Virus record (IMG/VR): IMGVR_UViG_3300010362_000006 | Span: 1 to 43,996 of that record | DNA: 43,996 nt | Direction: 5' to 3' (one strand) | Source: a virus | In this document: positions 15,606-43,190 of the stretch, in pieces | How the letters are laid out: each line of letters starts with the position of its first letter | How positions within the stretch are numbered: the first letter of the stretch is position 1 | Program-made: the position numbers and the translations under genes | Notes under the pieces: model-generated | What the model saw: only the letters and a program-made list of their open reading frames with translations | Told to the model about the DNA's origin: nothing | Databases searched by the model: none

Positions 15606-15651
15606 GTCCCTGCTCCCTTGTGTTTGTCTATCGTCAAAATCAACTTTCCAA

Positions 15652-16918: not shown

Positions 16919-16943
16919 CAGTTGATCTCCTCCAGAAGCATCA

Positions 16944-16972: not shown

Positions 16973-17031
16973 ACGGTTTTCGGCGAGGACGATCGGGGTC
17001 CTCGGGGCGAAAGCTCATACGAAAGTCCGCG

Positions 17032-17835
17032 TCAGTAGCCGAAGGGCTCGAGCGTCAGCCGATGACGATCGAGCAGCTCGCGATCCGTGACGTGGCCGGT
17101 CCGGCTCGCGTCGATGACGAACGGCACGCGGAGCCGCTGCCCGAGAAAGGCGCTCAATTCGTCGAGAACGACGATCGGGTCCGTGACCAGGCGCTCGAAC
17201 CGGACGGTGGTGGCGCGCGGACCGAGGCGCCAGACCTGCAGCTCGGCGCGCTCGACGTATTCGCGCCACCAATCGACGGCGTCCGCGGTGTCCGCGGCCC
17301 GAAGATTCGCGATCGCACGGTGCTGGCGCACCAGGCGAGCCACCGGCGCCCGACCGGCTCGCCACCGCGCCTCAACCCGCCGACGACGATCCGTGAGGCT
17401 CGCGGCCACCTCGAGCCCGTTCCGCAGCACGTGAATGACCTGCGCCTCGGGCCAGATCCGCAACCAAAACGGCAGCGTGAAGGTGGTCCGCGGGTCCTTA
17501 AACCCGTAGCGCCGCGGGCGCCGCACCAGGCGCCAGCCCCAATAGCGACGTGCGCTCCACCCCTCGACGTGCGCGCGCACCACCTGGCTGACCGCATCGG
17601 CGAGGAACGCATCCGCCAGCAGACGATCCACACCGCCGCCGCCGGCGGTCTCGATGCTGGCGCCGGCGCTCTGAAGAATCCAGCGATTCACCGCTTGCAG
17701 TGATCGACTCTCGTGATTCGACTCGACGTCGGCGCCCATGAAGACGCCGTTGCCTGCGAGGATGCGCGCGACCAGGCTGGTCCCCGACCGACTCGAGCCG
17801 ATGACGATCACGGGACTAGAGCATGTCGGTCCCAT
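17032..17835 (-). CDS. PAPS-dependent sulfotransferase, 267 aa
   Basis: 5'-PSB-like VIVIGSSRSGTSLVARIL near the N-terminus; KDPRTTFTLPFW; 3'-PB-like LRNGLEVAAS. Confidence 0.75.
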   Translation of the reverse strand: MGPTCSSPVIVIGSSRSGTSLVARILAGNGVFMGADVESNHESRSLQAVNRWILQSAGASIETAGGGGVDRLLADAFLADAVSQVVRAHVEGWSARRYWGWRLVRRPRRYGFKDPRTTFTLPFWLRIWPEAQVIHVLRNGLEVAASLTDRRRRVEARWRAGRAPVARLVRQHRAIANLRAADTADAVDWWREYVERAELQVWRLGPRATTVRFERLVTDPIVVLDELSAFLGQRLRVPFVIDASRTGHVTDRELLDRHRLTLEPFGY

Positions 17836-18562
17836 GCTGCCGCCGCTCGACTGAGATTTTGGAAATGAACGTGCCTTTGGCCCACCGCGTCCGCAAGTGC
17901 GCGCCCCACTTGCGATGCAGGTACGCGAACTCGACGTCGTGCGCGGCCTTCGTGCGATTCACCGCGTTGCCGCCCGCTTGCTTCCACCGATCGTGCGCGA
18001 ACGCGAACCGGTTGTCCTGCCAGATGATCCGAAATTTTCTGAGGTGTTGCAGCGCGAAGTCAGTATCCGCGTGCAGCTTCAACTTCGGGTCGTAGCGCAG
18101 CTCGCGGCCGACGACGCCCATCGGCCCATCGACCCACCCGTTCAAGTTGAAAGGCTGAAGAGGCGTGAACTTCCGCACGTCCCACGCCTGGTTGAAGCCG
18201 CACAGATGCGCGCCCGCGGCCTCGGCGCACTCGATGGTGTTGACGAGCAGGTCCCAAATCAGCGGCGGCGCGATGTGATTCGCGTACGTGCCGGTCAGGC
18301 CGTACGCCCCGACGATATCATCCGGCACCATGTAGACCAGGGGACTCGACACGTGGTCGAGAATCCACTGACGGACCGGACCGATGCCGGTCACGTTGTT
18401 CGGGTGCAACAGCAGCTCGCGCTTCGTGAGGCCGTGGTACTCGTCGCGCTCTTCCTCGGCCACGCACAACGTCGCCTCGGGGAAGAACCGCCCGCTCTGC
18501 CGCGGCCACGTGCGCGCCCGACGACGACTCATGCACACCAGGGCGATCGCGGGCGTGATCAT
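17816..18562 (-). CDS. GT-A-fold-like (nucleotide-sugar transferase-like) protein, 248 aa
   Basis: Start trimmed to the ATGA-coupled ATG 18562; order IALVCMSRRR...GIGPVRQWILDH...VYMVPDDIV resembles the GT-A N-terminal half with a DxD-like motif. Weak, motif-level call only. Confidence 0.35.
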   Translation of the reverse strand: MITPAIALVCMSRRRARTWPRQSGRFFPEATLCVAEEERDEYHGLTKRELLLHPNNVTGIGPVRQWILDHVSSPLVYMVPDDIVGAYGLTGTYANHIAPPLIWDLLVNTIECAEAAGAHLCGFNQAWDVRKFTPLQPFNLNGWVDGPMGVVGRELRYDPKLKLHADTDFALQHLRKFRIIWQDNRFAFAHDRWKQAGGNAVNRTKAAHDVEFAYLHRKWGAHLRTRWAKGTFISKISVERRQHGTDML

Positions 18563-19239
18563 TTCTTCCGTTTGCCGTCGAGAATCTCGAACAGCCGGTC
18601 GGCGCCGATGACGCGTCCGATGCCGATCTTGCGGCGACCCCCGAGCGTCACGCCCTCGCGTCGGATGCCCAACAAATCGCAGGCGCGCGTCCACGCGTGG
18701 CTGTCCCGAAACACCACCATGATGTAGTCGTGGTGCTCGAAGGGCTGACACTCCATCTCCGGCAACGTCTCGTCGGCGACGACGTCCTCGCTCGCGTTGA
18801 GCAATTTCGCCCACTCCGGGGGACGGAAAAAGTCCTCGAGGTTCGCGCCGCTCTCTTGCAGACTCTTCAACGTCGCCGGTTCCCACGCCAGGCCGACTTC
18901 GGTGACACGGTTGTCGGCGATGGCGAGTTCGCGCGCCGCACTGTCCGACAAATCGAGATCGGTCCGCTGCACCACCACGAGCTGCGAGCCGTCGGTCTGC
19001 ACCACCACGAGCTCGGGCGCACCACTCTCGCCCGCGGCCTCCACGGTCTTGTTCCCCGCGATCAACTGCCCGTGTTTGTCGACCAGGACGGAGCGACCGA
19101 ACCCGTACTCGCGAATCGAGGTGTGGAGCAGCGCGCGACCACGCGTCGTACCCTTGTTCGCGTTGTTCGGGTCGGGCTTGAGGTCTGCGAGGGACCGCAG
19201 GGCACCGTTGGCTGGCGCCGCGGTGGATTTTCGCTTCAA
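18559..19239 (-). CDS. ParB/Srx-fold N-terminal domain protein, 226 aa
   Basis: LKPDPNNANKGT...LLHTSIREYGFGRSVLVDKHGQLIAGNKTVEAA; TTG 19239 preceded by GTAGGGGGG. Confidence 0.65.
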   Translation of the reverse strand: MKRKSTAAPANGALRSLADLKPDPNNANKGTTRGRALLHTSIREYGFGRSVLVDKHGQLIAGNKTVEAAGESGAPELVVVQTDGSQLVVVQRTDLDLSDSAARELAIADNRVTEVGLAWEPATLKSLQESGANLEDFFRPPEWAKLLNASEDVVADETLPEMECQPFEHHDYIMVVFRDSHAWTRACDLLGIRREGVTLGGRRKIGIGRVIGADRLFEILDGKRKK

Positions 19240-19379
19240 GTTGCCCCCCCTACGCCAATTTCGCGACGGCCTACGCGAGGGGCCTGAGTGGTTTGGCGCA
19301 CCCCACGCGCCAGCGATTGACAAGCCCCCCCGGTCCCGCGACGCGCGACGAACGACGCGCGCATCGTACCACCACACCG

Positions 19380-28575: not shown

Positions 28576-28987
28576 TTCCTCCGACATCGACAGCGCCCTC
28601 GTGGCGAAGCTCTCGGGCGACGTGCAACTGACGACGCTCATGCCCGACGGCGTGTTCTTCGACCAGGCGCCGCAGGGCGCGACGAAATTCGTGCTGCTGT
28701 CGATCGTCGACGAAGCGGATTTCCCGATCTTTCAGAAGCGCGGATTTGAAGATCACACGTATCTCGTCAAGGCGGTGGAACTGTCCTCGAGCGGCGCCAA
28801 CGTGAAGACTGCGGCGGCGCGGATCGACGCGCTGCTCGAGGGCGGCACCCTCACCGTCACCGGCTACAACGTCATCGTGATGCAGCGGGTGGCGCGCGTG
28901 CGCGCGACCGAAGTCGATGACGTCGATCCCTCCATTCGCTGGCAGCACCGCGGCGGTCGCTACGAGATCGTCGCCACGGCACCATGA
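28568..28987 (+). CDS. Tail completion protein (DUF3168-like), 139 aa
   Basis: Position and size. Confidence 0.55.
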   Translation: MADSSDIDSALVAKLSGDVQLTTLMPDGVFFDQAPQGATKFVLLSIVDEADFPIFQKRGFEDHTYLVKAVELSSSGANVKTAAARIDALLEGGTLTVTGYNVIVMQRVARVRATEVDDVDPSIRWQHRGGRYEIVATAP

Positions 28988-29637
28988 TGATTCCGTCACA
29001 CCATAGCGACGTCGACGAATATGGCTACTGCCCACAGCACGGTATCCCGGTGCGTCCGAATCAGGGATGTTCCGGCTGCGTCACCGGGCTTCCGTCGATC
29101 AATCCCGCACGGCGCCTGAATGTCGGGTGCGGCGAGTGGCCGTTGCTCTACTACACCAATCTCGACGCCGACCCGAAGGCGAACGCCGACCTCTATGTGA
29201 AAGTGCCGCCGCTGCCATTTGACGACGGCGGGCTCGATGACATCTACGCAGGCCATTTTCTCGAGCACCTCACGCCCGAGGACGCCGACGAATTTTTGCG
29301 CGAGTGTTTCCGCTGTCTCGTGCCCGGTGGACGGCTCGGCATCGTCGTGCCCGACACGCGGATCGTGATGGAACGGTGGCTTGGCGGCGATCCGGGGTCG
29401 ATCGAATATCCCGCGGGCACGTTTCGGCCACGCGCCGACCTCGACACGATCTGCGAGCTGTTTCTCTACAGCACCGTGCAGGAGTCGCCGCATCGCTGGT
29501 CCTACGACTCGACCACGCTCGCGCGCCGCATCACGCGCGCAGGGTTCACGCTGACGCAGGAGATTCACCGCTACACCGACATCCGCATCCCGGTGGGCGC
29601 GTGGTACCAGTGCGGATGGGACGCGGTGAAGCCGTGA
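28984..29637 (+). CDS. Class I SAM-dependent methyltransferase with N-terminal Cys cluster, 217 aa
   Basis: LNVGCG motif I, LPFDDGGLDDIYAGHFLEHL, LVPGGRLGIVVPD. Confidence 0.75.
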   Translation: MMIPSHHSDVDEYGYCPQHGIPVRPNQGCSGCVTGLPSINPARRLNVGCGEWPLLYYTNLDADPKANADLYVKVPPLPFDDGGLDDIYAGHFLEHLTPEDADEFLRECFRCLVPGGRLGIVVPDTRIVMERWLGGDPGSIEYPAGTFRPRADLDTICELFLYSTVQESPHRWSYDSTTLARRITRAGFTLTQEIHRYTDIRIPVGAWYQCGWDAVKP

Positions 29638-30749
29638 AGGTGCTGCTCGTCCACCCTGGCGCGAGCTGGTCGACCACCGACGTCGAGGCCGGCCTGCGGT
29701 ACGGGCTCACGCACCACGGCGTGCAGGTCGTCCGGTACCGCCTGGACGAACGGATCGATCGCTCGAAACGCTGGCTCTATGCCAGTTGGCGCCACGCGAA
29801 GAAACGCAACCCGACGCTCGAGCGGCCGACTATCGGCGATTTCTTCTACCAGGCGGGTGTCGGCGCGCTCGAGATGGCCCTACGACACAACGTCGATGCC
29901 GTGGTCATCGTCAGTGCGATGTTCCTGCACCCCGACGTGATCATTCTGCTGAAACGCGCGGGCCTCTTCGTCACGGTGCTCTTCACCGAAAGCCCGTACG
30001 ACCAGGTGCAGGAGTTGAAGATCGCGCCACTGGTCGACGGCTGCTGGACCTGCGAACGCTCATCGGTCCCGGCGTTCCGGGCGGTCAACCCCCGGAGCGG
30101 CTATCTCCCGCACGCGTGGCACCCCGAACGCCATCGACCAGGCGCGCAACCCGAAGACGATCTGGTCATCGGGCACGACGTCGTCTTCGTCGGGTCGGCG
30201 TTTCGTGAACGCATCGACTGGTTCTCGGCGATCGACTGGCGCGGCATCGACCTCGGGCTCTATGGCGAATGGTCCGCGCTCGGGTCCCGCCACTCGCTGC
30301 GGCACTTCGTCCGCGAAGGCCCGGTCACGAATGTCAAAACGGCGGCGCTCTACCGACGCGCCAAAATCGGCCTCAACCTCTATCGCACGTCACAGGGATG
30401 GGGCAAAGACGCTCCGTCCATCGCGCACGCAGAATCCTTAAACCCGCGGGCCTACGAGCTCGCGGCGTGTGGCGCCTTCCACCTGAGCACGCGGCGGGCG
30501 GAAGTCGGCGAAGTCTTCGGCGATCACGTCCCGACCTTCGGGGACGCGACCGAAGCTGAATCTCTCATCCGCGCCTGGCTGGCCGACGACGCACACCGAC
30601 AGCGCGTCGCCTCGAGCCTTCCGGCCTGTGTGGCCGAGTCGTCTTGGGTCGAACGGGCGACCCGAGTCATCGGAGACCTGCAAACGCTCACGCGCCCACC
30701 AACGATCGGCGCGATCGCGCTCGCCGCGGTCGGCACTGGGGCGGCGTGA
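29634..30749 (+). CDS. GT-B glycosyltransferase, CgeB/DUF3880-like, 371 aa
   Basis: GTGA coupling; HDVVFVGSAF, LGLYGEWS, AKIGLNLYR, SLNPRAYELAACGAF. Confidence 0.65.
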   Translation: MKVLLVHPGASWSTTDVEAGLRYGLTHHGVQVVRYRLDERIDRSKRWLYASWRHAKKRNPTLERPTIGDFFYQAGVGALEMALRHNVDAVVIVSAMFLHPDVIILLKRAGLFVTVLFTESPYDQVQELKIAPLVDGCWTCERSSVPAFRAVNPRSGYLPHAWHPERHRPGAQPEDDLVIGHDVVFVGSAFRERIDWFSAIDWRGIDLGLYGEWSALGSRHSLRHFVREGPVTNVKTAALYRRAKIGLNLYRTSQGWGKDAPSIAHAESLNPRAYELAACGAFHLSTRRAEVGEVFGDHVPTFGDATEAESLIRAWLADDAHRQRVASSLPACVAESSWVERATRVIGDLQTLTRPPTIGAIALAAVGTGAA

Positions 30750-31832: not shown

Positions 31833-31957
31833 CCATCTGTCGCTTCATGGGCGGGTGGAAATTCGAGTGGGCCGGACAACTTCCGGCTGACGTGTACGAC
31901 GCCGTCGTCGCGATGATGCACGACGCCGCTCAACAGCGAGAACCGGAACCGGAATGA
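31446..31957 (+). CDS. gpGT-like frameshift fusion (31446..31796 joined to 31796..31957 by a -1 shift)
   Basis: The extension ...RPGYVEGIRSDLAICRFMGGWKFEWAGQLPADVYDAVVAMMHDAAQQREPEPE ends overlapping the tape-measure ATG. Confidence 0.65.
31790..31796 (+). promoter_or_regulatory. -1 programmed frameshift heptamer A_AAA_AAA
   Basis: GAA AAA AAA G in the zero frame; the -1 frame stays open from 31796 to TGA 31955-31957. Confidence 0.7.
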
Positions 31958-34900
31958 TCAGCGGGAAATTTCAGGCCGACTTCTCGTCCTTTGAAGAGGC
32001 CGTGAAAAAAGCCATCGTCACGCTCAAGAGCTTGTCGGATAACGCCGACAAGGTCCCGGCGGCGATGACCCGTATCGGCAATTCGCTGACCGGCACCAAG
32101 CTGATTCAGGACGCGACGATGATGGCGCAGTCCGTCGAACGGCTCGGCGGCGTCTCGATCCTCACCGAAAAGGAACTCGCGAAACTCGGCGGGCAAGCCC
32201 AAGAAGCGGCCGAGAAAATGAAGCTGCTCGGCATCGACGTCCCGAAAAATTTGCAGGCGATCGCCGACGCGGCGACGGCGGCGGCGAAGCCGATCGCCGA
32301 CGTGGGCAAAGCGGCGACGGACTCGCAGACAGCGCTCGGCGGCATCGGCGCCTCGTTCACGAATCTCGTCGCGGGCGTCGCGACCGGGGAACTCATCGCG
32401 GACGTCTTCAAAAAAATCGGCGAAGAACTCCTGCAACTCGGCATCCACGCGGCGGAAGTGTTGCCGATGATGGTCGAGCACGCGATCGAAGTGGGCAACT
32501 CGCTCTTTGAAATGTCCCTGAAGACGGGCGCCTCGGTCGAGAACCTCTCGAAGTTGCGGTTCGTCGCGAGTCAGACGGGCATCGACTTCCAGTCCTTCGG
32601 CACCACGCTCTTCAAGATGGAGCAGAACCTCGACGCGACCGGCAAAAAAGGTGACACGTTGGGGGGGAAGTTGGCCGCGATCGGGCTCAACCTGCGCGAT
32701 CTGAAGAACAGCAAACCGGACGACGCCTTCATCACCATCATGTCCGCGATGGAGAAGATGTCGAGTCGCGCGGAACAGGCGAGCCTCGGCGTCGCGCTCT
32801 TCGGCAAGGGCTTCAAGGACATGGCGGGCCTGACGCAGGAGTCCATTAAAGACCTGATGAAAGAAGCCGAGGACCTCGGCCTCGTCATGAGCACGCAGGA
32901 CGCGGCGGCGGCACACGCCGCGGAGGTCGGTTGGAAGAAATTCCAGATGCAGCTCGAAGCCGCGAGCATGAGCATCGGCAACGTGTTCGTCCCCGCGGTC
33001 ACGACGGCACTGAACCTCCTGAGCGAAGGATTCACGGAGGCGATGAAGAACACCGGGGTCAGCACGAAAGACTTGCAAGAGATTCTGAAGAGCGTCACGA
33101 CTGACATCGCGTTCTTCCTGGCCGACCTCGTGAAGGTCGCCGCGTATGTCGGCGACGCGCTCGCGCAGGCCTTCAGCGGACAGATTCTCGAACAGTTGGG
33201 CCTGCTCGATTTCATCGCGCGGGTCGGCGCGAAACTGATCGGCCTCGGCGAAATTGCCGCGACGATTACCGGCAACGCGTTCCTACTCAACACGCTCGAA
33301 GACCTGCGAGGGAAGTTCGACACCGTCGGCAAAAAGACAGAAGAGTACGCCGGAAAAGTCGCCGAACTCGCCGGTGCCTTGCACACGCTCGAGCAGGGCG
33401 CGCAGGGTGCCGCGAACAATCTGAAAGCGGGGTGGGACGCGGCCCTGAAGAAGACCGAGGACCAGATCAAGCACTTCGCGGAGACGAGTCACAAAGCCTT
33501 CGGCGGCGCCGGCGAGGACACCGAGTCCTTCGGCGAGAAAAACAAGAAAGCGACGAAGGACCTCGAGAGTCTCGAGAAAGAACTCTACAAGGTCGAACGG
33601 CAAGGCTACCAGGACTCCGTCGCGATGCAGGTCATGAACGCCGAACTGCTGAAATTCGGCAAGGGCGACGAGTCCGTGCAACAGCTCGGGAAGGCGCTCG
33701 AGCAGCTCCCGATCACGGTCGCGAAACTCAACGCCGAACTCGACAAGACGCCACAGAAGCTCTCCGCGATCGCGAACATCCTGCCGCAGGACACGTCGGG
33801 CTTTTTCCTGCCGTCACGACAGACGGTGCCGACGATCCAGACGCTCGGCCAGGGCGCCTACGCCGAACCCGCGGGACTTGAGATCGGCAAGGACTTCTCG
33901 AAAGGATTTGAAACCGGCATCGCGAAGATGCCCGACGCCATCCTCCGCGCGCTCGAAGGCGGCGGCAACGTCTTCGCCGCGGCGGCGGGCACCATCGGAC
34001 AGAGTATCGGCGAGTCCCTTCAGAAAAATTTGAATGACACCATCCTCAAAAATGCGAGTGGGGTGACTGGGTCCCTACTGAAAGGATTCTCAGCCGCGTT
34101 GCCCGCGATTGGCGCACTCGCCGGGCCATTGGTCGACGCCTTGTTTGGCATCGGCGGACCCTCGAAAGCGGAACTCGCCGGACGCGATGCCGTCGCGAGT
34201 TTTGAAAAAGGGTTTGGCAGCGCCGAAAAGATGATCAACGCGGTGGGCGCCGCCTACGTGGCCGAAGGCAAGACCGTCGAGGAAGCACAGAAGGACATCA
34301 AGGCGATGTGGGCCGCGGAGAAACAAGGCGCGGACGCCACCACCGCCGCGGTGCGAAAACTTCAGGACGCGCTCGCACAGCAGCAAAAACTGCAACAAGG
34401 CGCCGCGCAATTCGGCCCCTCGAAAACGGAGCTCGAGCAGATGGCGAAGGACGCGAAGGACGTCTACGACTTCATGCTCGCGCAGGGGACGTACACCGCC
34501 GACCAGCTCGCCGCCGCGTTCAAGGCGTCACAGGAAGCGCAAGCTGCCGCCCTCGGCATCAACACCGAGGCGACGAAGAAACACCTGGACGAAATGCAGA
34601 AAGGCCTCGAAGACCTGATGTCCCGGCGCGATGCGCTCTGGACGCAGGTCTCGCAGGAAGCGCCCGAGGAAGTGATGGGCGTGATCGAAACCGCACAGCG
34701 CGCGCAGCTCGGTGTCCTCGATGATCAGATCGCCGCGCAAAAGAAAGCGATCGAGAAAGAAGCCGACGATGCGGCGGCGGCGCTCGAGGCCGCACTCAAT
34801 CAAATCACGCCCGACGCGATTCATGTGCCGGTCGTCTTCGACTGGACGAACGCGCAGGATATGCCGAGTCACGGGCAACCGCAGCCCTACCCTGGCCCCG

Positions 34901-35112
34901 CGATTCCGATGGCGCGCGGCGGCGATTTCCTCGTCACCAAACCGACGTTGTTCCTCGCGGGCGAGGCGGGACCCGAACGCGCCACCTTCTCGCCAAGCAC
35001 ACGCGACAGCGATGTGAGCCGCCAGCTCGCGCAGCTCACCCGCGCGATGAACCGTCTGCCTCGCACTATCAGCCGCGCCGTGACCGATGGCCTCGTCGGG
35101 ATCACGGGCTAA
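31954..35112 (+). CDS. Tape measure protein, 1052 aa
   Basis: Length, helical Ala/Lys/Glu-rich composition, position. Confidence 0.9.
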   Translation: MISGKFQADFSSFEEAVKKAIVTLKSLSDNADKVPAAMTRIGNSLTGTKLIQDATMMAQSVERLGGVSILTEKELAKLGGQAQEAAEKMKLLGIDVPKNLQAIADAATAAAKPIADVGKAATDSQTALGGIGASFTNLVAGVATGELIADVFKKIGEELLQLGIHAAEVLPMMVEHAIEVGNSLFEMSLKTGASVENLSKLRFVASQTGIDFQSFGTTLFKMEQNLDATGKKGDTLGGKLAAIGLNLRDLKNSKPDDAFITIMSAMEKMSSRAEQASLGVALFGKGFKDMAGLTQESIKDLMKEAEDLGLVMSTQDAAAAHAAEVGWKKFQMQLEAASMSIGNVFVPAVTTALNLLSEGFTEAMKNTGVSTKDLQEILKSVTTDIAFFLADLVKVAAYVGDALAQAFSGQILEQLGLLDFIARVGAKLIGLGEIAATITGNAFLLNTLEDLRGKFDTVGKKTEEYAGKVAELAGALHTLEQGAQGAANNLKAGWDAALKKTEDQIKHFAETSHKAFGGAGEDTESFGEKNKKATKDLESLEKELYKVERQGYQDSVAMQVMNAELLKFGKGDESVQQLGKALEQLPITVAKLNAELDKTPQKLSAIANILPQDTSGFFLPSRQTVPTIQTLGQGAYAEPAGLEIGKDFSKGFETGIAKMPDAILRALEGGGNVFAAAAGTIGQSIGESLQKNLNDTILKNASGVTGSLLKGFSAALPAIGALAGPLVDALFGIGGPSKAELAGRDAVASFEKGFGSAEKMINAVGAAYVAEGKTVEEAQKDIKAMWAAEKQGADATTAAVRKLQDALAQQQKLQQGAAQFGPSKTELEQMAKDAKDVYDFMLAQGTYTADQLAAAFKASQEAQAAALGINTEATKKHLDEMQKGLEDLMSRRDALWTQVSQEAPEEVMGVIETAQRAQLGVLDDQIAAQKKAIEKEADDAAAALEAALNQITPDAIHVPVVFDWTNAQDMPSHGQPQPYPGPAIPMARGGDFLVTKPTLFLAGEAGPERATFSPSTRDSDVSRQLAQLTRAMNRLPRTISRAVTDGLVGITG

Positions 35113-35575: not shown

Positions 35576-38500
35576 ATGTTTGATGCTGCGTGGTTCGAGC
35601 GGTGGCAGTGGCTCTTACTGCTCATCCTCGAGGAACCGATCCTCGGCCGGTGGTTCCGGTGGCTGCTGTGCATTCGTCCGCACGATGTCGGCTATCGCGG
35701 GCGCATCGTCCGGCTACTCCCCCACGCCTACGTCGTCGCGAATAACGACGGCACCTTCACCGCCGATTTTCGGACGCACGATAAATTTGCCAAGCGGCTC
35801 TATTACGGTTTGCGTCCGTTCTGGCGCGCGTGTCACCTATGGGATCTGGCGATCGCGAATCGCTTCCGGCCGGCGTGGAATCTCGGCTTCGATACCTTAG
35901 GCCCCCTCTATCCTGACGCCGGATCGGGCGCCACGACCGTCGACGGGCGCGTGGAGAATTCGCCAGGCGGCAACGTGTCCTGGGCGACGATCATCGCCGG
36001 CGCGGGCACGACCGCTGAAGTGGTCTCGACGCACAACGCGTCGGTGGGCTGGCAAGACGGCACTGTCAGCAACACGTTCTCGAGCCTCTGGCGGGGCATC
36101 TCGACCTACAACACCGCGGCGCTCGGCACGGGCGCGGTGATCTCGACCGCGACGCTCTCGTTTTTCGGCAGCGGCCAGAGTAACGACGGATCCAATCCCA
36201 ATTTCAATGTGTACGGCGCCACGCCCGCCTCGAATAATGCCCTCGTCGCGGCGGACTTCACGCAAGTCGGCAGCACGGCGTTCAGCACGGCCATCAATGT
36301 CACGGCGTGGAGCACCTCCGGCTACAACGACTTCCTCCTCAACGCCAACGGCCTCGCGAACATCAACAAGAGCGGGATCAGTCGGTTCGGGGAGCGCAAC
36401 GCGAATTACGACGTCGCGGCGGTGGCGCCGTCGTGGTCGACCTCGGGGAATCTGATCTTCATCGAGCACTGGAACGCCGATCAAACCGGCACGGCGAACG
36501 ATCCGAAACTTGTCGTCACCTTCACCCCGACGGTCGTCGTCACCGCTAAAGGCACCTTCGCCACCAAATCGAATACCGATCCGATCCTGAGCAGCATCTC
36601 GGTCCCCAACGGTGAGACGTTGATCGTCTCGCTCTTCGCTGGCAACGACAACGCCAACTCGCGCCGCATGCAGTTCAACGGCAACGAGATGACGAAAGAC
36701 GTCAACGTCGAGGGACTCTTTGCGAACGCCAACACCTATCTGAGCGTCTTTCGCTGGCTCAATAACACCGGCAGTACGGTCACCGGGAACCTCCGCTATC
36801 TCACCTCCACCGGCACGGCACTCACAGGGGTGGGCATCGCGGGCACGGCTAATTCGCTCACGAATCTCGACACGACCAGTCCCTTCGATCAGCATTCGAC
36901 GACGGATTCGGCCGGCGCGACGAGCGCGGACTCCGGTAACACCGGCACGACCACGGCAGCGGCCGAGATCCTGATCGGCTTTCTCTGCACCCGAGGTCCC
37001 AACACGGATGCGGCCGGGACGTGGGGCGGTGATACCGCCACCAGCGGGCAACGCGGCGGGACGACTGGCGGATCAGCCAATTCCAACTACACCGTCTACG
37101 ACGCGAACGGCGCGCAATCGGCGACGGGTGTGCGCCATGCGGCGGTCACCGGGCTCTCTGCTGGCCGCGCCTACACCCTCGGGATCGTCACCTACAAACA
37201 GGCGAGCAGTGGCGCTGCGCTCAGCGGTGGACCCGCGACCGCGAGTTGGGCGATTACCGCCGCGACGCTCGTCGCTTCGGGTGCGGTCGCGCTCAGCGGC
37301 ACGAAACCCGTCGCTACCTGGGCGATCACCGCCGCCTCGTTTGCGGCGCCGCAAGCGTTGAGCGGCGGACCGGCGACGGCGACATGGACCGCGACGGCCG
37401 CCACGATCGCGAAAGGTCCGGTCGCGCTGAGTGGCGGTCCCGCAGCGGCGACGTGGGCGATCACCGCCGCGACCCTCAGTGGCGCGACCGCGCTCACCGG
37501 GACCAAGCCGGTCGCGACGTGGACGGCGACGGCCGCGACGCTCACGGCCTCGGGCAGCGGCGCAATTGGCGGCGTGCCGGTCGTCGCGACGTGGACGGCC
37601 ACCCCCGCCGCGCTGACGAAGGGATCGGTGGCCCTCACCGCCGCCACGCCCGCGATCGCGACCTGGACGAGCACGCCGGCGGTGCTGCGCGGCACCGGCG
37701 CGGCCACGCTCGCCGGAGTATCGGTCAGTGCCACGTGGGCGATCACGATCGGCAGTCTCGCCCCGCCGCCGCCGCCCATCGCCTCGATCTTTCTCGAAAT
37801 GGAATTTTCGGGACGCGGCAACGGGTGGACCGAGGTCAAAGATTGGCGACTCGCCGACGGTCTGCGATGGGATCGCGGGCTCCCCGGCAACGGCGTCGCC
37901 GATTGCATCGCCGACACGGGCACGCTGAATTTCGTGCTCAACAACGCGATCACGAACAGCGTGCATCTCATCGGCTACTACAGCCCCGATCACGCGAACT
38001 GTCGCGCAGGCTTTCAACTGATGATCGGCGTGCGCGTCCGCATCACGATCGGCGCGGCCGAGTACGTGCGGTTCACCGGCTATCTCGATTACATCAACCC
38101 GCAGCCGGGCATGCACCAGAATTTCGGCGTCGACTGCGAAGCGATCGGCTGGATGGGGCTCGCCGCGCGCACCCGCCTCGGCGACCTGCCGATTCTGCTC
38201 GACGCGTCGGGGGATGACGTCTTTCAGACGATCATTGATTCGCTGCCGACGTTCTCGCAGCCGCGAGCGATTGAGAAGGATCTCAGCGCCGACGTGTACC
38301 CGTACATCCTCGATCGGATTCGCGATGAAGAGACGCACGCGAACGACGAACTCTACCGCCTGGCGCTGAGTGGCCTGGATCGGATTTGGGAGCGCGGCAA
38401 CGGCACGCTCGTCTATGAGAGTCGCACGCGACGCGCCACGCGCACCGCCGACATCGACACCTTCCCCGACACGCACGGCTTCGGGGCGCCGCGGACCGCC

Positions 38501-39898
38501 GACACCGTCGCGAACTCCACGCAGACGACCGTGCATCCGCGCTTGCCGAGTGCCGTCAGCAACGCCGTGCTCTTTAGTCTCAACCAACCGATGCAGCTCG
38601 CCGTCGGTCAGCCGGTCGACGTGCTCGGGACGTGGACGGACCCGACCAATCCCGACGTGCGCGTCGGCGCGGTCAGTCTCGTGTCGCTCGTCAGCGGCAC
38701 CGACTACGTGGCGAACAGCGCCCAGGACGGCAGCGGGATCGACCTCACCGCGGCGCTCACCGTCGCGGTCGGGCTCTCGGGCAACGCGACGGCCTTCACG
38801 GTCACGCTCGGCGGCTCGACCCCTGGCTGGCTCACCAAACTCCAACAACGCGGGCGCGCGCTGCTCGATTACGGCGATGTGCAGGCGATGCAGAAAGATC
38901 AAGGCAGCATCGACCGGTTCGGGCTCAATCCGCTGAACGTCGACATGCCCTATCAGGCCGACCCGAATTTCGGCATCGAAGTCGGGCAGTACATCATCTT
39001 CACGCGGGCGCAACCGCTCACGCAGGTCGAGGCCTTCCGGCGCGTGATCGGCATGAAGAACAGCCCCGAACTGGCCCGCAGTCTCGCGCGGGAAGTCAGC
39101 GATCGCATCGGCATCACCGAACCCGTGACGGGCGTGCAGAAATCGTTTTTCATTGAACGCATCAGCGAAACGATCTACGCCACGCACGTCGAAACCGAAT
39201 GGACCCTGTCACTGCCGATCGACGGGCGCCAGTTCTGGCAGCTCGAGGTCGTCGGCCGCGGCGAACTCGACATCAACACGCGGCTCGGCTTCGGACTCAT
39301 CGTCGGCCACACCGATGTTCACCACGCCGACTTCCACGGCGATAGCCTCCACAGCGACAGCGCGCACGTGGATACGCATACCGACGATTTGCACCAGGAC
39401 CAGTTGCACGGCGATGGGAGCACGCACGGCGACACCGCCCACAGCGATACGCAGCACAGCGATCGCGCGCACACGGACGTCGCCCATCTCGATGAGCACG
39501 CGGATGATCCCTTCGAGGATCACACCGATAACAGTCATAGCGATGTGCAACACCTCGACGACCATTTCGACTATCACGGCGATTTCTTCGACGCCGCGCA
39601 TGGCGTGGCCTTCGGCGACCACGGCGATACGCACACCGACCAGGCGCACGGCGACGCGCACGGCGACAGCCCCCATATTGACGAGCGGCACGAGGACTTC
39701 AGTGACAGCGTGCCGCACAACGATGTCCCGCACGGCGACGTCGCCCACGTCGACATCGCCCACAACGACGCGTCGAGCCACTCCGACGTGTTGCACGCCG
39801 ACGTGTTGCACGCCGACGTCGCGCATGTCGACGTCGCGCACGGCGACGCGGCCCATGCCGACAACCACGATGACACCGCCCACGGAGACGCGAATTGA
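35576..39898 (+). CDS. Giant multidomain tail-tip protein, 1440 aa: N-terminal region of unknown type, 8 x ~23-aa repeats, Dit-like (siphovirus distal tail) domain, C-terminal HxD repeat array
   Basis: Single uninterrupted ORF; start trimmed to ATG 35576; IFLEMEFSGRGNGWTEV...FTGYLDYINPQ... resembles a distal tail protein. Confidence 0.75.
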   Translation: MFDAAWFERWQWLLLLILEEPILGRWFRWLLCIRPHDVGYRGRIVRLLPHAYVVANNDGTFTADFRTHDKFAKRLYYGLRPFWRACHLWDLAIANRFRPAWNLGFDTLGPLYPDAGSGATTVDGRVENSPGGNVSWATIIAGAGTTAEVVSTHNASVGWQDGTVSNTFSSLWRGISTYNTAALGTGAVISTATLSFFGSGQSNDGSNPNFNVYGATPASNNALVAADFTQVGSTAFSTAINVTAWSTSGYNDFLLNANGLANINKSGISRFGERNANYDVAAVAPSWSTSGNLIFIEHWNADQTGTANDPKLVVTFTPTVVVTAKGTFATKSNTDPILSSISVPNGETLIVSLFAGNDNANSRRMQFNGNEMTKDVNVEGLFANANTYLSVFRWLNNTGSTVTGNLRYLTSTGTALTGVGIAGTANSLTNLDTTSPFDQHSTTDSAGATSADSGNTGTTTAAAEILIGFLCTRGPNTDAAGTWGGDTATSGQRGGTTGGSANSNYTVYDANGAQSATGVRHAAVTGLSAGRAYTLGIVTYKQASSGAALSGGPATASWAITAATLVASGAVALSGTKPVATWAITAASFAAPQALSGGPATATWTATAATIAKGPVALSGGPAAATWAITAATLSGATALTGTKPVATWTATAATLTASGSGAIGGVPVVATWTATPAALTKGSVALTAATPAIATWTSTPAVLRGTGAATLAGVSVSATWAITIGSLAPPPPPIASIFLEMEFSGRGNGWTEVKDWRLADGLRWDRGLPGNGVADCIADTGTLNFVLNNAITNSVHLIGYYSPDHANCRAGFQLMIGVRVRITIGAAEYVRFTGYLDYINPQPGMHQNFGVDCEAIGWMGLAARTRLGDLPILLDASGDDVFQTIIDSLPTFSQPRAIEKDLSADVYPYILDRIRDEETHANDELYRLALSGLDRIWERGNGTLVYESRTRRATRTADIDTFPDTHGFGAPRTADTVANSTQTTVHPRLPSAVSNAVLFSLNQPMQLAVGQPVDVLGTWTDPTNPDVRVGAVSLVSLVSGTDYVANSAQDGSGIDLTAALTVAVGLSGNATAFTVTLGGSTPGWLTKLQQRGRALLDYGDVQAMQKDQGSIDRFGLNPLNVDMPYQADPNFGIEVGQYIIFTRAQPLTQVEAFRRVIGMKNSPELARSLAREVSDRIGITEPVTGVQKSFFIERISETIYATHVETEWTLSLPIDGRQFWQLEVVGRGELDINTRLGFGLIVGHTDVHHADFHGDSLHSDSAHVDTHTDDLHQDQLHGDGSTHGDTAHSDTQHSDRAHTDVAHLDEHADDPFEDHTDNSHSDVQHLDDHFDYHGDFFDAAHGVAFGDHGDTHTDQAHGDAHGDSPHIDERHEDFSDSVPHNDVPHGDVAHVDIAHNDASSHSDVLHADVLHADVAHVDVAHGDAAHADNHDDTAHGDAN
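37217..37760 (+). repeat. Coding tandem repeats: 8 units of ~23 aa, AL(S/T)GxxPxATW(A/T)xTAATLxxxG
   Basis: Read from the translation. Confidence 0.85.
39305..39895 (+). repeat. Coding repeat array: ~35 His-x-Asp units, mostly 5-residue period, ~197 aa
   Basis: GHTDVHHADFHGDSLHSDSAHVDTHTDDLHQDQLHGD...HSDVLHADVLHADVAHVDVAHGDAAHADNHDDTAHGDAN. Confidence 0.9.
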
Positions 39899-41202
39899 GC
39901 ATCGAACTGAATCCCGTTGGCGTGAAGTGCAATCTCCAGTGCGCGTACTGCTACGAAGATCCGATGCGGGCGGCGGGCAACTTCGCGCCCGGCTACGACC
40001 TGGCGGCGATGAAACGCGGGCTCGCCGCCGAGGGCTACCAGTTCTCGCTCTTCGGCGGCGAACCGTTGCTCATGCCAATCGCCGACCTCGAGGAGATGTG
40101 CCGGTGGGGTTTCGAGCAGTACGGCAGCACCGGGCTTCAGACGAACGGCAATCTGATCACGGAGGCGCACCTCGCGCTCTTCGCGCGCTACCACGTCGGC
40201 GTGGGCATTTCGATCGACGGTCCTGACGAACTCAACGACGTGCGCAGCGCCGGCACGCTCGAGAAGACGCGCGCCCTCACCGCTCGGAGCGAATGGGCCA
40301 TCCACGAGCTCTGCGCGCGCCACCAGGCGCCGAGTCTCATCGTGACGCTCCACCGCGGCAACGGCGTCGGGACACGACTGCATCGACTGAAGGCGTGGCT
40401 CGCCGACCTGCACGACCAGGGCGTCCGGTACGTGCGGCTGCACTTACTCGAAGTCGAATCCGCCGAAGTGCGGCGCCAGTGGGCGCTCACCGAGAACGAG
40501 AATGTCGCCGCCATGCTCGACCTCGCGCACTTTGGGCAACGGCACCCGCGTCTGCATCTTGACGTGTTCAGTGACCTCGACAAGCTCCTGCGCGGTCGAG
40601 ACAGCACGGGCGGCGGCGTCACGTGCATCTGGAACGCGTGCGATCCCTACACGACGCGCGCCGTCCGCGGCATCAACGGGCTCGGCGAGAACATCAACTG
40701 CGGGCGTACGAACAAAGACGGGGTCGATTGGCAGAAGGCCGAGACCGAAGGGTTCGAGCGACAGCTCGTGCTCTACGACACCCCGCAAGCGGACCACGGG
40801 TGTCGCGGCTGTCGGTTCTTCATCGCGTGCAAAGGGCAATGTCCCGGCACCGCGATCGACGGCGATTGGCGCAATCGCACGGAACACTGCGGCGTGTGGA
40901 TGCGCCTCTTCGACCGCGTCGAACGGGACTTGATCGCCGCGGGCGTCACGCCCGTGTCACGATCGCCGGAACTGCCCGCCCTCGAAGCGATCATGCTCAA
41001 CGCCTGGCGCGAGGGGCGCAACCTGTCGATCGAGCAGGCGATCGGCATCCTCCACGGCCATCCCGCCGACCAGGGCGCGCAGGAGCATGGCGATCACTGG
41101 GACGCGCCGGACGGCTATCACCACACGGACGCCGGGCTCGAGATCCACGGCGACGCGGGGACGACGGTGATGCACGGAGACACGCCACATGGCGACACGT
41201 AA
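39895..41202 (+). CDS. Radical SAM enzyme with complete SPASM domain (peptide/protein maturase type), 435 aa, HxD-rich C-terminal tail
   Basis: CNLQCAYC (CX3CX2C, 39928-39951), GGEPLL, QTNGN, SIDGP; SPASM C-x14-G-x4-C ... CRGCRFFIACKGQC (40801-40842) ... C; TTG start overlaps the upstream TGA, with GGAGA 6 nt upstream. Confidence 0.85.
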   Translation: MSIELNPVGVKCNLQCAYCYEDPMRAAGNFAPGYDLAAMKRGLAAEGYQFSLFGGEPLLMPIADLEEMCRWGFEQYGSTGLQTNGNLITEAHLALFARYHVGVGISIDGPDELNDVRSAGTLEKTRALTARSEWAIHELCARHQAPSLIVTLHRGNGVGTRLHRLKAWLADLHDQGVRYVRLHLLEVESAEVRRQWALTENENVAAMLDLAHFGQRHPRLHLDVFSDLDKLLRGRDSTGGGVTCIWNACDPYTTRAVRGINGLGENINCGRTNKDGVDWQKAETEGFERQLVLYDTPQADHGCRGCRFFIACKGQCPGTAIDGDWRNRTEHCGVWMRLFDRVERDLIAAGVTPVSRSPELPALEAIMLNAWREGRNLSIEQAIGILHGHPADQGAQEHGDHWDAPDGYHHTDAGLEIHGDAGTTVMHGDTPHGDT

Positions 41203-42295
41203 CGCGGAGTTCAGCCGACGGATGTGGAGTTCGGGCGCGGCCCGACACGCCTGGGAGGCGCGCATCGCGCACGCGGCCGACGCCTGGCTGCACCTCGAGG
41301 TCGCGACCGTGGTCGCGGGATTCCGCCGCGCAGGCCTCGTCTTCGGCACCCGGCACGTCCAACCGACGCGCCTGCCGATCGTCGCCGTCGCGCCCGACCG
41401 CTTCGCGATTGGTCCCGGCGCCCACGAGCTCGCGGACGCCTACGCGCGCACCGACGACGAGGCGATCGGCGCGCTGCTTGGGTTTCCGCGCTGCTGCCGC
41501 GCCTTTTTCGCCGCGACGTGGGCACAAGGTGCGGGCGATACCACCTGGCAGATGGCGACCAATGGCACCGACGGTCCGCTCGAGTGCAACATCCTCGGCC
41601 GCTGGCTCGGGCTGCGGTGGGTCATGCACCTCCCCTGTTCGTTCACGTGCCGCGCGAGCGCCGCGCTCGGCGCCGCGCACCGTACGTTGCTCGACGCGGA
41701 GGATGCCGCCACGATCGATGCGGTCTTGTCGTGGCCGATCGAATGGTCCGCCTTGCACGGCGCCGCGGAGATCCGCTACCCCGTCGTCAAGATCGTCACG
41801 CGCACCGGCTACACCACGGACAAGCGCATCGTCCAGCGACGCGGGTCCACGTACCCGCCCGAAGGGGCGCGCGGGCTGGTGTTCCCCTACTCGGCCGCGG
41901 ACATGCGGACGCCGCAGGAGAATGGCTTTCCCTCGAGCGCCACGCAGGACGCCGGCCACGCCATGATCCTCGACGCGCTCCGCAGCTCGCCGCCCCGCGG
42001 CGCCGTGCTCGACCTCGGCGCGGGCAATGGCCTGCTGATGGAACGGATCGCGTCGACGTTTCTCCGACCGGTCTACGGCATCGAAGTGGACGCGCACAAA
42101 GCGGCGAAGCATCCGGGGATTCGCTGTGGCGACCTCCGCGCCCTCGAGACGTTGGTGAATCCCGTGGACACGATCGTCGTCTCGGCACGGCGCTTCGAGG
42201 AAATCCCTGCATTGCGCGCCACCGTGGGACGGCTCGCGCGCCAGGTCCTCGTTTACTCGTACGACGACCCGCGCTTTGCGCGGATGGAGGCGTGA
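41189..42295 (+). CDS. Fusion of a Cys-rich N-terminal domain and a class I SAM methyltransferase-like C-terminal domain, 368 aa
   Basis: GFPRCCRAFF...HLPCSFTC; VLDLGAGNGLLMERI motif I; overlaps the rSAM gene by 14 nt. Confidence 0.6.
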   Translation: MATRNAEFSRRMWSSGAARHAWEARIAHAADAWLHLEVATVVAGFRRAGLVFGTRHVQPTRLPIVAVAPDRFAIGPGAHELADAYARTDDEAIGALLGFPRCCRAFFAATWAQGAGDTTWQMATNGTDGPLECNILGRWLGLRWVMHLPCSFTCRASAALGAAHRTLLDAEDAATIDAVLSWPIEWSALHGAAEIRYPVVKIVTRTGYTTDKRIVQRRGSTYPPEGARGLVFPYSAADMRTPQENGFPSSATQDAGHAMILDALRSSPPRGAVLDLGAGNGLLMERIASTFLRPVYGIEVDAHKAAKHPGIRCGDLRALETLVNPVDTIVVSARRFEEIPALRATVGRLARQVLVYSYDDPRFARMEA

Positions 42296-42687
42296 TGTTC
42301 ATCACACTGCTCGGACCCGAACAGTTCACGTTGCCTGATGGACAACGCGTGCGCTACATCTCCGACTATCTCGCTTGGCATCGCGTCAATCTCAACCCGA
42401 CCGCCCGCGGCGAACACGTCTGGAGTCCGCTGCCCGCGAGCGTCGAACATGGCCGCTGGCTCTGTCACTGCGTCTGTGGCGCGGGCCTGCTGACGCGGCC
42501 CGAACTCCCGATCGCGTGCTGCATCTGGTGCGGCAACATCTACGAACGCATCGAATTTCCGAAGCACTGGCGCGACATCGAACGCGTGCTCCTGCTGCGG
42601 CCGATGCGCGAACAGCAAAACTGGATCGGCGAATCGGTCGCGACCCTCATCGCCGAAAACGCAGAACATTCGATTGGAGTCTCGTGA
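42295..42687 (+). CDS. Zinc-ribbon protein, 130 aa
   Basis: TGATG coupling; CHCVC...CCIWC. Confidence 0.55.
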   Translation: MFITLLGPEQFTLPDGQRVRYISDYLAWHRVNLNPTARGEHVWSPLPASVEHGRWLCHCVCGAGLLTRPELPIACCIWCGNIYERIEFPKHWRDIERVLLLRPMREQQNWIGESVATLIAENAEHSIGVS

Positions 42688-43190
42688 TGGCGTGGACACT
42701 CCCGCGCACCTGGGTTCCCGGCGAGCTCGTCACGGCGTCGATGATGAACACGCAGATTCGGGACAATCTGAATTTTCTCTACTCGAATGTCGCGACGTGG
42801 ACCCCGACGGTCACTTTCGACACGCCGGGCAATTTGAGCGTCGCGTATGCGACCCAGGTCGGGACGTGGTGTCGCGCCGGCGGCTTCGTGGTGGCGCGCA
42901 TGGTGGTGATCACCTCGACGTTCACGTTCACGACGGCCTCGGGCGGGCTCCGCATTGGCGGGCTCCCGCTCCCGAACTCGTCCTCGCAGGAATCACCCGG
43001 TGGCGGTTTGCTGTGGGCGGGCATCACGAAGGCGGGCTATACGCACCTGACGCCGATGGTCGCGGGTAGTAGTTCCTCGGCCTACATCAACGCCTCGGGT
43101 TCGGGTCAAGCGGTCGCGACCATTAGCGCCCCTGACACGCCCTCGGGCGGCACACTGCGACTCAACGGCGAATTTATTTACCCCGTGTGA
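42687..43190 (+). CDS. Tail fiber / receptor-binding-like protein, 167 aa
   Basis: TGATG coupling; MAWTLPRTWVPGELVTASMMNTQIRDNLNFL is an N-terminus common in phage fibre-associated proteins. Confidence 0.5.
   Translation: MAWTLPRTWVPGELVTASMMNTQIRDNLNFLYSNVATWTPTVTFDTPGNLSVAYATQVGTWCRAGGFVVARMVVITSTFTFTTASGGLRIGGLPLPNSSSQESPGGGLLWAGITKAGYTHLTPMVAGSSSSAYINASGSGQAVATISAPDTPSGGTLRLNGEFIYPV

Follow-up and report, generated by a model that had tools for sequence, protein, structure and literature searches.

A radical SAM/SPASM enzyme coupled to a phage tail protein that ends in a His-x-Asp array: a candidate for RiPP-style modification of a virion protein

The window analysed here, the 43,996-base IMG/VR virus record IMGVR_UViG_3300010362_000006 (positions 1 to 43,996), is the whole contig of a tailed phage with a G+C content of approximately 65%. 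Three consecutive genes on its plus strand overlap at their boundaries: an open reading frame (ORF) for a tail protein of 1440 amino acids (aa) that ends in a long array of His-x-Asp (H-x-D) tripeptides (35576–39898), a 435-aa radical S-adenosylmethionine (radical SAM, rSAM) enzyme with a SPASM cysteine motif (39895–41202), and a 368-aa protein with a DUF483-like domain and a predicted class I SAM-dependent methyltransferase domain (41189–42295; the gene caller places the start at 41222). An initial annotation proposed that the enzyme modifies the array in the style of ribosomally synthesised peptides that are modified after translation (RiPPs), and noted that no description of such maturation of a phage tail protein was known to it. 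Here we describe the three genes, their association in related loci, and the chemistry that the array might undergo.

The array occupies positions 39308–39889. The initial annotation counted about 35 repeats in approximately 197 aa, and we find 37 units in the last 196 aa of the tail ORF; the array ends HGDAN, and the stop codon follows at 39896–39898. Among these 196 residues (39308–39895) there are 45 Asp and 39 His, with Asp at position +2 of the His in 37 cases. Units are spaced 5 aa apart in 23 cases, 4 aa in 8 cases and 6–15 aa in the rest. When the same residues were shuffled 100,000 times, the mean number of H-x-D tripeptides was 8.9 and the maximum 20, compared with 37 in the real sequence, and there is not a single H-x-D in the other 1244 aa of the tail ORF. 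At the DNA level Tandem Repeats Finder detected a weak 15-nt periodicity with 73–85% matches, which indicates that the array is coding sequence of old date, diverged but selected for the tripeptide, and not a fresh slippage repeat. In the AlphaFold2 model the array has per-residue confidence (pLDDT) values of 34–48 and no secondary structure, next to a confidently modelled hub domain (see below), and this predicted lack of structure is the appearance expected of an accessible core region. A structural repeat of fixed period, of the pentapeptide-repeat or beta-solenoid type, was considered and rejected on account of the spacing of 3–9 aa among related arrays and of the structureless AlphaFold model.

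The TGA stop of the tail ORF (39896–39898) overlaps the TTG start of the rSAM gene (39895–39897) in the tetranucleotide TTGA, and a GGAGA ribosome-binding site, as read from the sequence, lies 6 nt upstream of the TTG at 39884–39888. The choice of the TTG start is supported by homologues of the enzyme, which begin with M-x-x-E-L at the same place. The same 4-nt overlap of stop and start is found at 31 junctions between array and enzyme in related loci. These signals had been noted in the initial annotation together with the CX3CX2C, GGEPLL and seven-Cys SPASM motifs of a 435-aa rSAM enzyme, and all of them are present. Residues C12, C16 and C19 form the CX3CX2C motif (39928–39951); in an alignment of homologues C16 and C19 are at least 90% conserved and the GGE of GGEPLL (G54, G55, E56) is invariant or nearly so. 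The Pfam model PF04055 (Radical_SAM) matches with 41 bits against a cut-off of 29.5, which places the protein among radical SAM enzymes. The SPASM region (C244–C332, 40624–40890) contains C249-x14-G264-x4-C269, C303-x2-C306-x5-C312-x3-C316 and C332, the complete seven-Cys motif, plus C244, and none of the eight C-terminal cysteines varies among 38 homologues. SPASM domains hold two auxiliary Fe-S clusters.

The initial annotation missed a further array, on the enzyme itself. The C-terminal tail of the rSAM protein (41086–41196, aa 398–434) contains six H-x-D units (HGD HWD .. HTD .. HGD .. HGD .. HGD), at least three units follow the SPASM motif in 66 of 120 homologues, and the rSAM ORFs of loci L065, L082, L083 and L124 bear 8–21 units. 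A defence-system reading suggested by PADLOC was rejected, as it amounted to a generic resemblance of the rSAM core to viperins and a weak methyltransferase match.

The third gene overlaps the rSAM gene. The N-terminal two thirds of its product (aa ~10–235) are DUF483-like, with C102, C103, H147, C150 and C154 invariant in the alignment, and the remainder (aa ~245–368) includes the motif VLDLGAGNG (VLDLGxGNG in the family), in which D275, G277, G279 and G281 are invariant. Pfam gave weak matches to DUF483 and to methyltransferase families, and the methyltransferase scores in Pfam and NCBIfam were under the cut-offs. An AlphaFold2 model of the protein has a pLDDT of 91.8. Foldseek matched only its last ~120–140 aa, exclusively to class I SAM methyltransferases, with a probability of 1.00 for TehB, BamL (the plantazolicin methyltransferase), CysG and others; the modelled fold thus assigns this part to the class I methyltransferases, and Foldseek returned no structural neighbour for the DUF483 part. 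A homologue of this protein accompanies the rSAM enzyme in nearly all loci, almost always as the gene after it, and three database proteins (P0063, P0073 and P0113) are fusions of the two.

The carrier of the array was not recognised by sequence methods. Searches of PDB and GenBank phages gave no match to the tail protein, and Pfam, PHROGs and NCBIfam have no family for it or for ten related HxD proteins. The array is therefore uncatalogued in these libraries, and a fold search was needed to identify the domain in front of it. The 510 residues before the array (37778–39307) were used to gather homologues, and hub and array were modelled together with AlphaFold2; residues 1–490 of the model have pLDDT of approximately 90. 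Foldseek matches in PDB include the baseplate chains 7aef and 7b5h of contractile injection systems (E = 7e-13 and 3e-12) and the MuSo2 43-kDa tail protein 3cdd (E = 6e-11, TM score 0.67); Mu gp44, VgrG, T4 gp27, the 80alpha baseplate, the Bxb1 tail tip and a siphophage tail-associated lysin (Tal) are also among the matches. Overall, E-values range from 7e-13 to 1e-9, and TM scores to 3cdd, 3d37 and 1wru are 0.65–0.67. The distal tail genes of the window start with the tape measure gene (31954–35112, plus strand; PHROG tail length tape measure families, E = 6e-15 and 2e-13), and a 138-aa gene separates it from the tail ORF. The predicted fold and the gene position downstream of the tape measure support assignment of this domain to the baseplate hub/Tal proteins, in line with the tail-tip location suggested in the initial annotation, and on this model the array is a C-terminal extension of the tail-tip hub. 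Hubs of the gp27/Tal type are trimeric in other phages and often bear a C-terminal spike, central fibre or lysin.

The association between enzyme and array was examined in two directions. In the forward direction, 160 loci around homologues of the rSAM gene, from viral contigs and from bacterial and archaeal genomes, were translated in six frames and searched for runs of at least eight H-x-D units. Counts cover the 121 loci with enough flanking sequence, and an array was regarded as lying beside the enzyme if it was on the same strand and no more than 1.5 kb upstream or 3.5 kb downstream. By this definition 84 of the 121 loci have an array beside the rSAM gene (upstream in 69, downstream in 12 and on both sides in 3). 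Ten more have an array elsewhere in the locus, mostly in the order array–DUF483–x–rSAM, and the remaining 27 have no array of at least eight units. In all, roughly 100 phages and bacteria besides the window pair such arrays with the enzyme. At approximately 70 junctions the stop codon of the array ORF is found −3 to +12 nt from the rSAM start, and the array is nearly always at the extreme C-terminus of its ORF.

In the reverse direction, viral contigs were scanned for four consecutive units of period 5 as a DNA pattern, making no use of the enzyme. Of the 120 stretches among the matches listed, 57 lacked an array in frame, a further 29 fell short of 12 units, and 9 consisted of perfect 15-nt tandem repeats. 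The other 25 listed matches were complex arrays of at least 12 diverse units, and an rSAM gene was present in the fetched stretch of 21 of them. When only those listed matches with at least 1.5 kb of downstream sequence were considered, the rSAM gene was next door in 18 of 19 complex arrays.

Homologues of the hub domain tell the same story from the side of the carrier. Those with at least 50% identity all bear an array after the sequence '...TRLGFGLIVG', and distant homologues stop at '...TRLGY', exactly where the array would start. Two array-less homologues on long contigs have neither an rSAM nor a DUF483 gene within 10 kb. Their genes adjoin the tape measure region or lie a short way downstream of it; the one in L164 comes directly after the tape measure.

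The rSAM family itself is broad. A total of 2163 proteins among the candidates passed E ≤ 1e-10, a threshold that may admit other SPASM enzymes, and the best 120 homologues are all at least 51% identical. Family members come from Acidobacteriota, Actinomycetota, Chloroflexota, Cyanobacteria, Planctomycetota, Bacillota and Pseudomonadota and from one metagenome-assembled genome (MAG) of Nitrososphaeraceae. Their genes are located in tail modules or beside HxD lipoproteins with a twin-arginine translocation (Tat) signal, not in cofactor or nucleotide pathways. The initial annotation had asked whether array and enzyme occur together in relatives, whether arrays are common without the enzyme and whether the enzyme belongs to a cofactor or nucleotide pathway; on all three questions these surveys favour its reading.

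The proteins that carry the array are diverse. The hub itself bears the array in 11 viral loci, as it does in the window. In L043, L045, L074 and L080 the hub is a separate gene and the array is on the next one, which encodes a fibre-like protein with a 'WTxPxTW' N-terminus. Most viral loci have a separate, fibre-like carrier of 270–340 aa that consists of a ~95-aa N-terminal domain of three 'PGSxWxEGxxLHYxD' repeats, the array, and a conserved end 'H.D(Q/N)P(V/T)x(V/I)GP' (for example L001, 7961–8242, and L051, 7102–7404); neither the repeat domain nor the conserved end belongs to a Pfam or PHROG family. Carriers in bacterial MAGs reach 2646 aa. In at least 14 loci of bacterial genomes a gene downstream of the DUF483 gene encodes a twin-arginine signal with a lipobox ('FSRRELLRAG...AACGG') and then the array (L094–L111, L133, L140, L147, L149, L151 and L155; for example L101, 7409–7987, and L147, 10721–11908). 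Judging from these signals, such proteins are presumably the exported, cellular version of the same module. The C-terminus of the rSAM enzyme is a further carrier. Since the carriers have only the array in common, the tripeptide units must be what the enzyme module recognises.

Cultured phages also contain the module. In 50,697 GenBank phage records, a close and near-full-length rSAM homologue was found only in the phages Cumys, phiMa and phiLo, and arrays are present in all three, which makes the idea testable on cultured phages. Cumys_13, a protein of the 270–340-aa type from the Thermus phage Cumys, has 54 H-x-D units, and its gene follows the baseplate and tail-collar-fibre genes and directly precedes those annotated as 'rSAM protein' and 'DUF483-domain protein'. 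In the jumbo Thermus phage phiLo (L002), three consecutive 'hypothetical' genes on the minus strand (phiLo_135–137, 14816–19370) contain approximately 180 H-x-D units in total; they are 4–9 kb from the phiLo rSAM and methyltransferase genes and on the opposite strand.

Not all members of the enzyme family are found with long arrays. Short precursor-like ORFs with 2–5 aromatic-x-Asp motifs adjoin the enzyme in loci L106, L109, L119, L144 and L163, which have no long array, and from these sequences the family seems to range from ordinary RiPP-like peptides to giant arrays. In L109 (6957–7238 and 7273–7986) and L119 (6828–7079 and 7172–7972), from Pseudoalteromonas and Pyrinomonadaceae, a precursor-like ORF of 84–94 aa ('..HTD..(VD)n..HTD') is upstream of rSAM–DUF483, and an ORF of ~240–267 aa is inserted between it and the rSAM gene, a layout like that of a RiPP gene cluster.

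Statistics of the motif were collected from 123 arrays with 3566 units. Asp is found at His+2 in 94% and His at Asp−2 in 85%, and only these two residues are fixed. A small residue (G, T, S, V or A) stands in the middle, and Cys accounts for 0.3% of array residues. Distances between units are 5 aa (1180 cases), 4 aa (615), 3 aa (295) or 6–9 aa; because a structural repeat needs a fixed period, this variation of 3–9 aa implies that the tripeptide is the functional unit. In a single viral clade (L025, L028 and L030–L041) the arrays mix His and Phe at position 1 and Asp and Asn at position 3 (SHTNIGFSNVGFSN, FSNTPFGNTPFTN, SHTNIGFSNVGFSNSYTPFSNVG), and several such genes stand in a row upstream of the rSAM gene (L030, 7018–7911; L040, 7027–7911). 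Phe is not a metal ligand, and the mixed arrays therefore argue against simple metal binding. Phe and His share an aromatic ring and Asp and Asn share a beta-methylene, which, as far as sequence can tell, is the aromatic-x-X3 grammar of the triceptides, peptides with three-residue cyclophanes.

In triceptides, an rSAM-SPASM enzyme joins a ring carbon of residue i to the C-beta of residue i+2. The characterised bonds run from His C2 to the C-beta of Ala (HaaB) or Arg (YhhB), from Tyr C3 to that of Asp (YxdB), from Trp C7 to that of Asn or Asp (OscB) and from Phe C4 to that of Asn (XncB and OscB) (all PMC11002830), as well as from His C2 to Lys C-beta (HtkB; PMC11499958). His as the ring donor and Asp as the acceptor are each known, and both halves of a His-to-Asp bond therefore have precedent. 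An adjacent substrate with aromatic-x-X3 motifs, typical of these systems, is present in the window as 37 H-x-D units upstream of the enzyme and in related loci as H/F-x-D/N arrays.

We consider it very probable that the array is the substrate of this rSAM enzyme, and the virion protein is probably cross-linked enzymatically after translation. The nature of the bond is less certain. A His-to-Asp crosslink is our best guess by analogy, not a result: taken as a specific assignment, His–Asp cyclophane chemistry falls somewhat short of what we would call probable, and for the combined statement, that the array is the substrate and that His–Asp cyclophanes are formed in it, we lean slightly in favour.

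The same enzyme and substrate could also be joined by a different chemistry. Epimerisation to D-residues, oxidation or decarboxylation of Asp, a His N–C crosslink or an inter-chain His–Asp crosslink within a hub trimer, and carbon insertion like the +8 Da change of HxsA are all conceivable, with methylation by the DUF483 protein. An enzyme that oxidises C-beta, anSME, scores as high against the window's rSAM as the cyclophane synthases do, an rSAM enzyme of the HXS anti-phage system puts a non-cyclophane change of +8 Da on a His-x-Ser motif (PMC13128918), and the conserved methyltransferase domain implies at least one further modification. The hub fold is trimeric in other phages, so inter-chain links would be geometrically possible. 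However, the exchange of His for Phe and of Asp for Asn at fixed positions i and i+2 fits the cyclophane grammar better than epimerisation or an Asp-specific oxidation, as Asn and Asp have only beta-carbon chemistry in common and Phe and His only an aromatic ring. We regard these chemistries, taken together, as rather unlikely.

Several observations weigh against the reading of the array as a cyclophane-bearing substrate. A long array is absent from approximately 20% of the loci, mostly bacterial MAGs, and short motif-bearing ORFs are shown in only some of these. The linkage has one clear exception, the array of the viral locus L245 (1753–1965, HADITHNDITHTDTPHNDTVHND), which has no rSAM gene within 10 kb downstream; it belongs with L198 and L280 to a family of ~365-aa proteins with 12–13 units near the C-terminus, and the flanks of the latter two are too short to judge. 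The Pfam SPASM model gave no match to the enzyme at E ≤ 0.01, where only PF04055 and a weak Fer4_12 match were found, so that SPASM membership is read from the cysteine motif. The best NCBIfam matches (anSME, YhhB, AmcB and DynA) are all far under their cut-offs: anSME reaches 61.6 bits against 349.45, over residues 6–116 only, and the triceptide models YhhB, AmcB, XyeB, GrrM/OscB and FxsB reach 60.3, 60.0, 45.4, 41.9 and 34.1 bits against 445, 425, 450, 310 and 370, which leaves the enzyme outside the curated triceptide-synthase families. Seven of the 15 best NCBIfam matches are cyclophane-forming rSAM/SPASM maturases, and a sequence comparison with PDB places anSME 4k36 (rSAM core, E = 4e-18) and ChlB 9gm3 nearest; being equally close to anSME and to the cyclophane synthases, the enzyme cannot be assigned a chemistry by its sequence. 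The cluster motif begins at residue 12, which leaves the enzyme without an N-terminal RiPP recognition element (RRE), and no leader peptide was identified in the system. Finally, a trimeric hub would have three His and three Asp at each level, and these could coordinate metal ions.

The last point belongs to a different explanation, in which the array is an unmodified metal-binding needle with Fe, Zn or Ni held by three chains, as by the HxH motifs at the tip of the T4 long tail fibre, while the rSAM and DUF483-methyltransferase proteins do other work, such as the DNA modification proposed for the Cumys module. His and Asp are classic metal ligands, and T4 gp37 binds iron along the fibre axis through its HxH motifs. 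Homologues of the rSAM and DUF483 genes are also found near deazapurine DNA-modification genes in some cyanobacteria (Kolesnik et al., PMC11437467). Against this stands the co-occurrence of array and enzyme in both directions, in unrelated carriers and phyla and often with overlapping stop and start codons, as does the lack of the enzyme next to array-less hub homologues. Moreover, the Phe and Asn that replace His and Asp in one clade are incompatible with metal ligation, and a spacing of 3–9 aa is hard to square with a regular fibre of stacked metals. The enzyme, which has a SPASM domain, finds its best matches among peptide and protein maturases, and no nucleotide-metabolism genes flank it in the window. 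An unmodified needle is thus very improbable. A functionless, disordered low-complexity linker that travels with the rSAM genes as one mobile cassette would agree with the structureless AlphaFold model and the weak 15-nt periodicity, and is scarcely credible given that His and Asp are kept at i and i+2 in 3566 units of approximately 120 diverged arrays while the rest varies, which implies strong selection on the tripeptide, that the array is joined at the C-terminus to many unrelated proteins together with the enzyme, and that a cassette does not explain why the enzyme bears the same motif.

If the array is cross-linked by cyclophanes, the process might run as follows. During late expression the rSAM enzyme would be made in step with the hub protein and would act on its flexible C-terminal array, the units being modified in the cytoplasm before or during tail assembly. 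A 5'-deoxyadenosyl radical would take a hydrogen from the C-beta of the Asp (or Asn) at position 3, and the resulting carbon radical would attack the imidazole (His C2) or phenyl ring at position 1, unit after unit. Each unit would become one small strained macrocycle with a loss of 2 Da, giving up to 37 rings in the chain. The DUF483-methyltransferase probably handles the substrate, adds methyl groups, or both. The hub, if trimeric like its structural relatives, would display three poly-cyclophane chains at the tail tip, and the end product could be a stiffened, His/Asp-rich filament or needle, resistant to proteases and heat, that projects from the tail tip.

These considerations lead us to a broader proposal, which we put forward as tentative. 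Tailed phages from many phyla, and cultured Thermus phages with them, may encode their own rSAM maturase, which would turn the C-terminus of a tail-tip or fibre protein into dozens of His–Asp (or Phe–Asn) cyclophane rings, an 'armoured' needle of RiPP type. A phage structural protein would then be seen for the first time to undergo enzymatic C–C crosslinking, no other known rSAM substrate would be nearly as heavily modified, and the Tat-lipoprotein version would be a new class of modified cell-envelope proteins.

The remainder of the window is consistent with a tailed phage. Genes for the large terminase, portal, head protease, major head protein and adaptor are encoded, and the tape measure comes after them. 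Between the head and tail genes, an ORF at 28984–29637 has a weak PHROG methyltransferase match (E = 6e-10), but it is overlapped by a longer ORF (29304–30749) and may not be a real gene. The N-terminal 734 aa of the tail ORF (35576–37777) form one continuous ORF with the hub domain, and an alternative ATG at 35483 would lengthen the protein to 1471 aa. This extension had no match in Pfam or PHROG and is absent from most homologues, partial ones being found in L004 and L014. Between the extension and the hub domain there are approximately nine Ala/Thr-rich repeats of ~20 aa (ALSGGPATATWAITAATL) and then a PPPPP linker (window ~37340–37775, tail ORF aa ~590–733).

Downstream of the module, a small Cys-rich ORF of 130 aa on the plus strand (42295–42687; CHCVCG...CCIWCG, zinc-ribbon-like) begins where the DUF483 gene stops and is possibly accessory. 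It is kept only in the close relatives L004, L011, L014 and L070, and searches of PHROG and PADLOC gave no match to it. The following ORF, also on the plus strand (42687–43190), is tail-fibre-like. Its N-terminal motif WTLPRTWVPGELVTASMMNTQIRDNL begins tail-fibre-like genes in 13 related loci, including those for the HxD proteins of L043, L045, L074 and L080. As this gene follows them, the rSAM and DUF483 genes lie within the tail module.

Maturation of phage tail proteins is generally thought to consist of folding, proteolysis, the action of chaperones and metal binding. Should the array prove to be cross-linked, enzymology of the RiPP type would reach structural proteins of the virion and to substrates with tens of sites, and the module would provide a natural, iterative and apparently leader-independent cyclophane system. 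The tail tip would then bear a new kind of organelle, whose stiffness, resistance to proteases or heat, or charge could matter for penetration of the envelope or for receptor binding. The module of the cultured Thermus phages would be re-interpreted, and could be tested in an existing phage–host pair. The phage system would also be linked to bacterial His-x-Asp lipoproteins and, by analogy, to the HxS anti-phage effector, in which case His-repeat proteins matured by rSAM enzymes may serve both sides of the phage–host conflict at the cell envelope.

We found no description of His-x-Asp arrays or of rSAM maturation of phage tail proteins in the literature outside subscription-only papers. In this respect the novelty claimed in the initial annotation stands; however, the three-gene module itself had been noticed. 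Kolesnik et al. 2024 described an 'rSAM module' of three genes in the Thermus phages Cumys and phiMa, with similar loci in prophages, and suggested that it performs an unknown DNA modification; histidine repeats are not mentioned (PMC11437467). The Cumys rSAM is 50% identical to that of the window; its gene stands between one for a 'hypothetical protein', upstream, and one for a DUF483 protein, downstream. What is new here is that the upstream gene carries 54 H-x-D units and that the link to tail proteins is general.

The carrier in the window resembles known hub and Tal proteins (T4 gp27–gp5, Mu gp44, VgrG, siphophage Tal) in the predicted fold before the array and in its position downstream of the tape measure. 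The known extensions of such hubs are folded beta-helices, OB folds or enzymes, and we know of none that is a His/Asp tripeptide array with a coupled maturase.

Among protein-modifying rSAM enzymes, anSME forms formylglycine in sulfatases and QhpD forms Cys-to-Asp/Glu thioethers in the gamma subunit of amine dehydrogenase. The substrates of both are proteins that lack a classical RiPP leader, and QhpD takes hydrogen at the C-beta of Asp and its product is exported. The likeness to the window is that anSME is both the best NCBIfam match and the nearest solved structure by sequence and that QhpD is also among the matches, whereas anSME and QhpD each modify a single site or a few, not dozens. The window's enzyme is not an anSME by its score, given above, and the array has no Cys/Ser-x-Pro/Ala-x-Arg motif and almost no Cys.

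The HXS anti-phage system has a periplasmic protein, HxsA, with five His-x-Ser repeats, which is matured by the rSAM enzymes HxsB and HxsC plus HxsD and has one mapped +8 Da site (PMC13128918). As in the reading favoured here, a protein with repeats of His-x-small/polar type is matured by rSAM in the cytoplasm and works outside it, at the interface between phage and envelope, and the Tat signal and lipobox of the cellular HxD proteins parallel the periplasmic location of HxsA. Unlike the phage module, HXS is a host defence with two rSAM enzymes; here one rSAM and a DUF483-methyltransferase are associated with tens of H-x-D units on phage tail proteins. Nor does the system belong to HXS by sequence, position 3 being Asp in 94% and Hxs models not being among the 25 best of 45 NCBIfam matches.

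The closest parallel in chemistry would be the triceptide synthases (XncB, OscB/GrrM, MscB, YxdB, HaaB, YhhB and HtkB), in which a single rSAM-SPASM enzyme is likewise encoded beside a substrate with repeated aromatic-x-X3 motifs, and some precursors hold several motifs that are processed iteratively. The differences are that H-x-D is not among the characterised motifs of the papers examined, and that the proposed substrate here is an array of 20–90 units on the C-terminus of large phage structural proteins or Tat lipoproteins instead of a short leader–core peptide. In addition, the DUF483-methyltransferase is an obligatory partner, the enzyme often bears the motif itself, and leader and RRE were not found. 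The RiPP-style modification of the initial annotation is accordingly borne out in the linkage of enzyme and array but not as a canonical RiPP, the presumed substrate being the C-terminus of a 1440-aa structural protein with no leader identified and no N-terminal recognition domain on the enzyme. What is familiar in this system is the class of the enzyme and the probable type of bond; what is new is the scale of the substrate, the virion context, the DUF483-methyltransferase partner and an enzyme tagged with its own motif.

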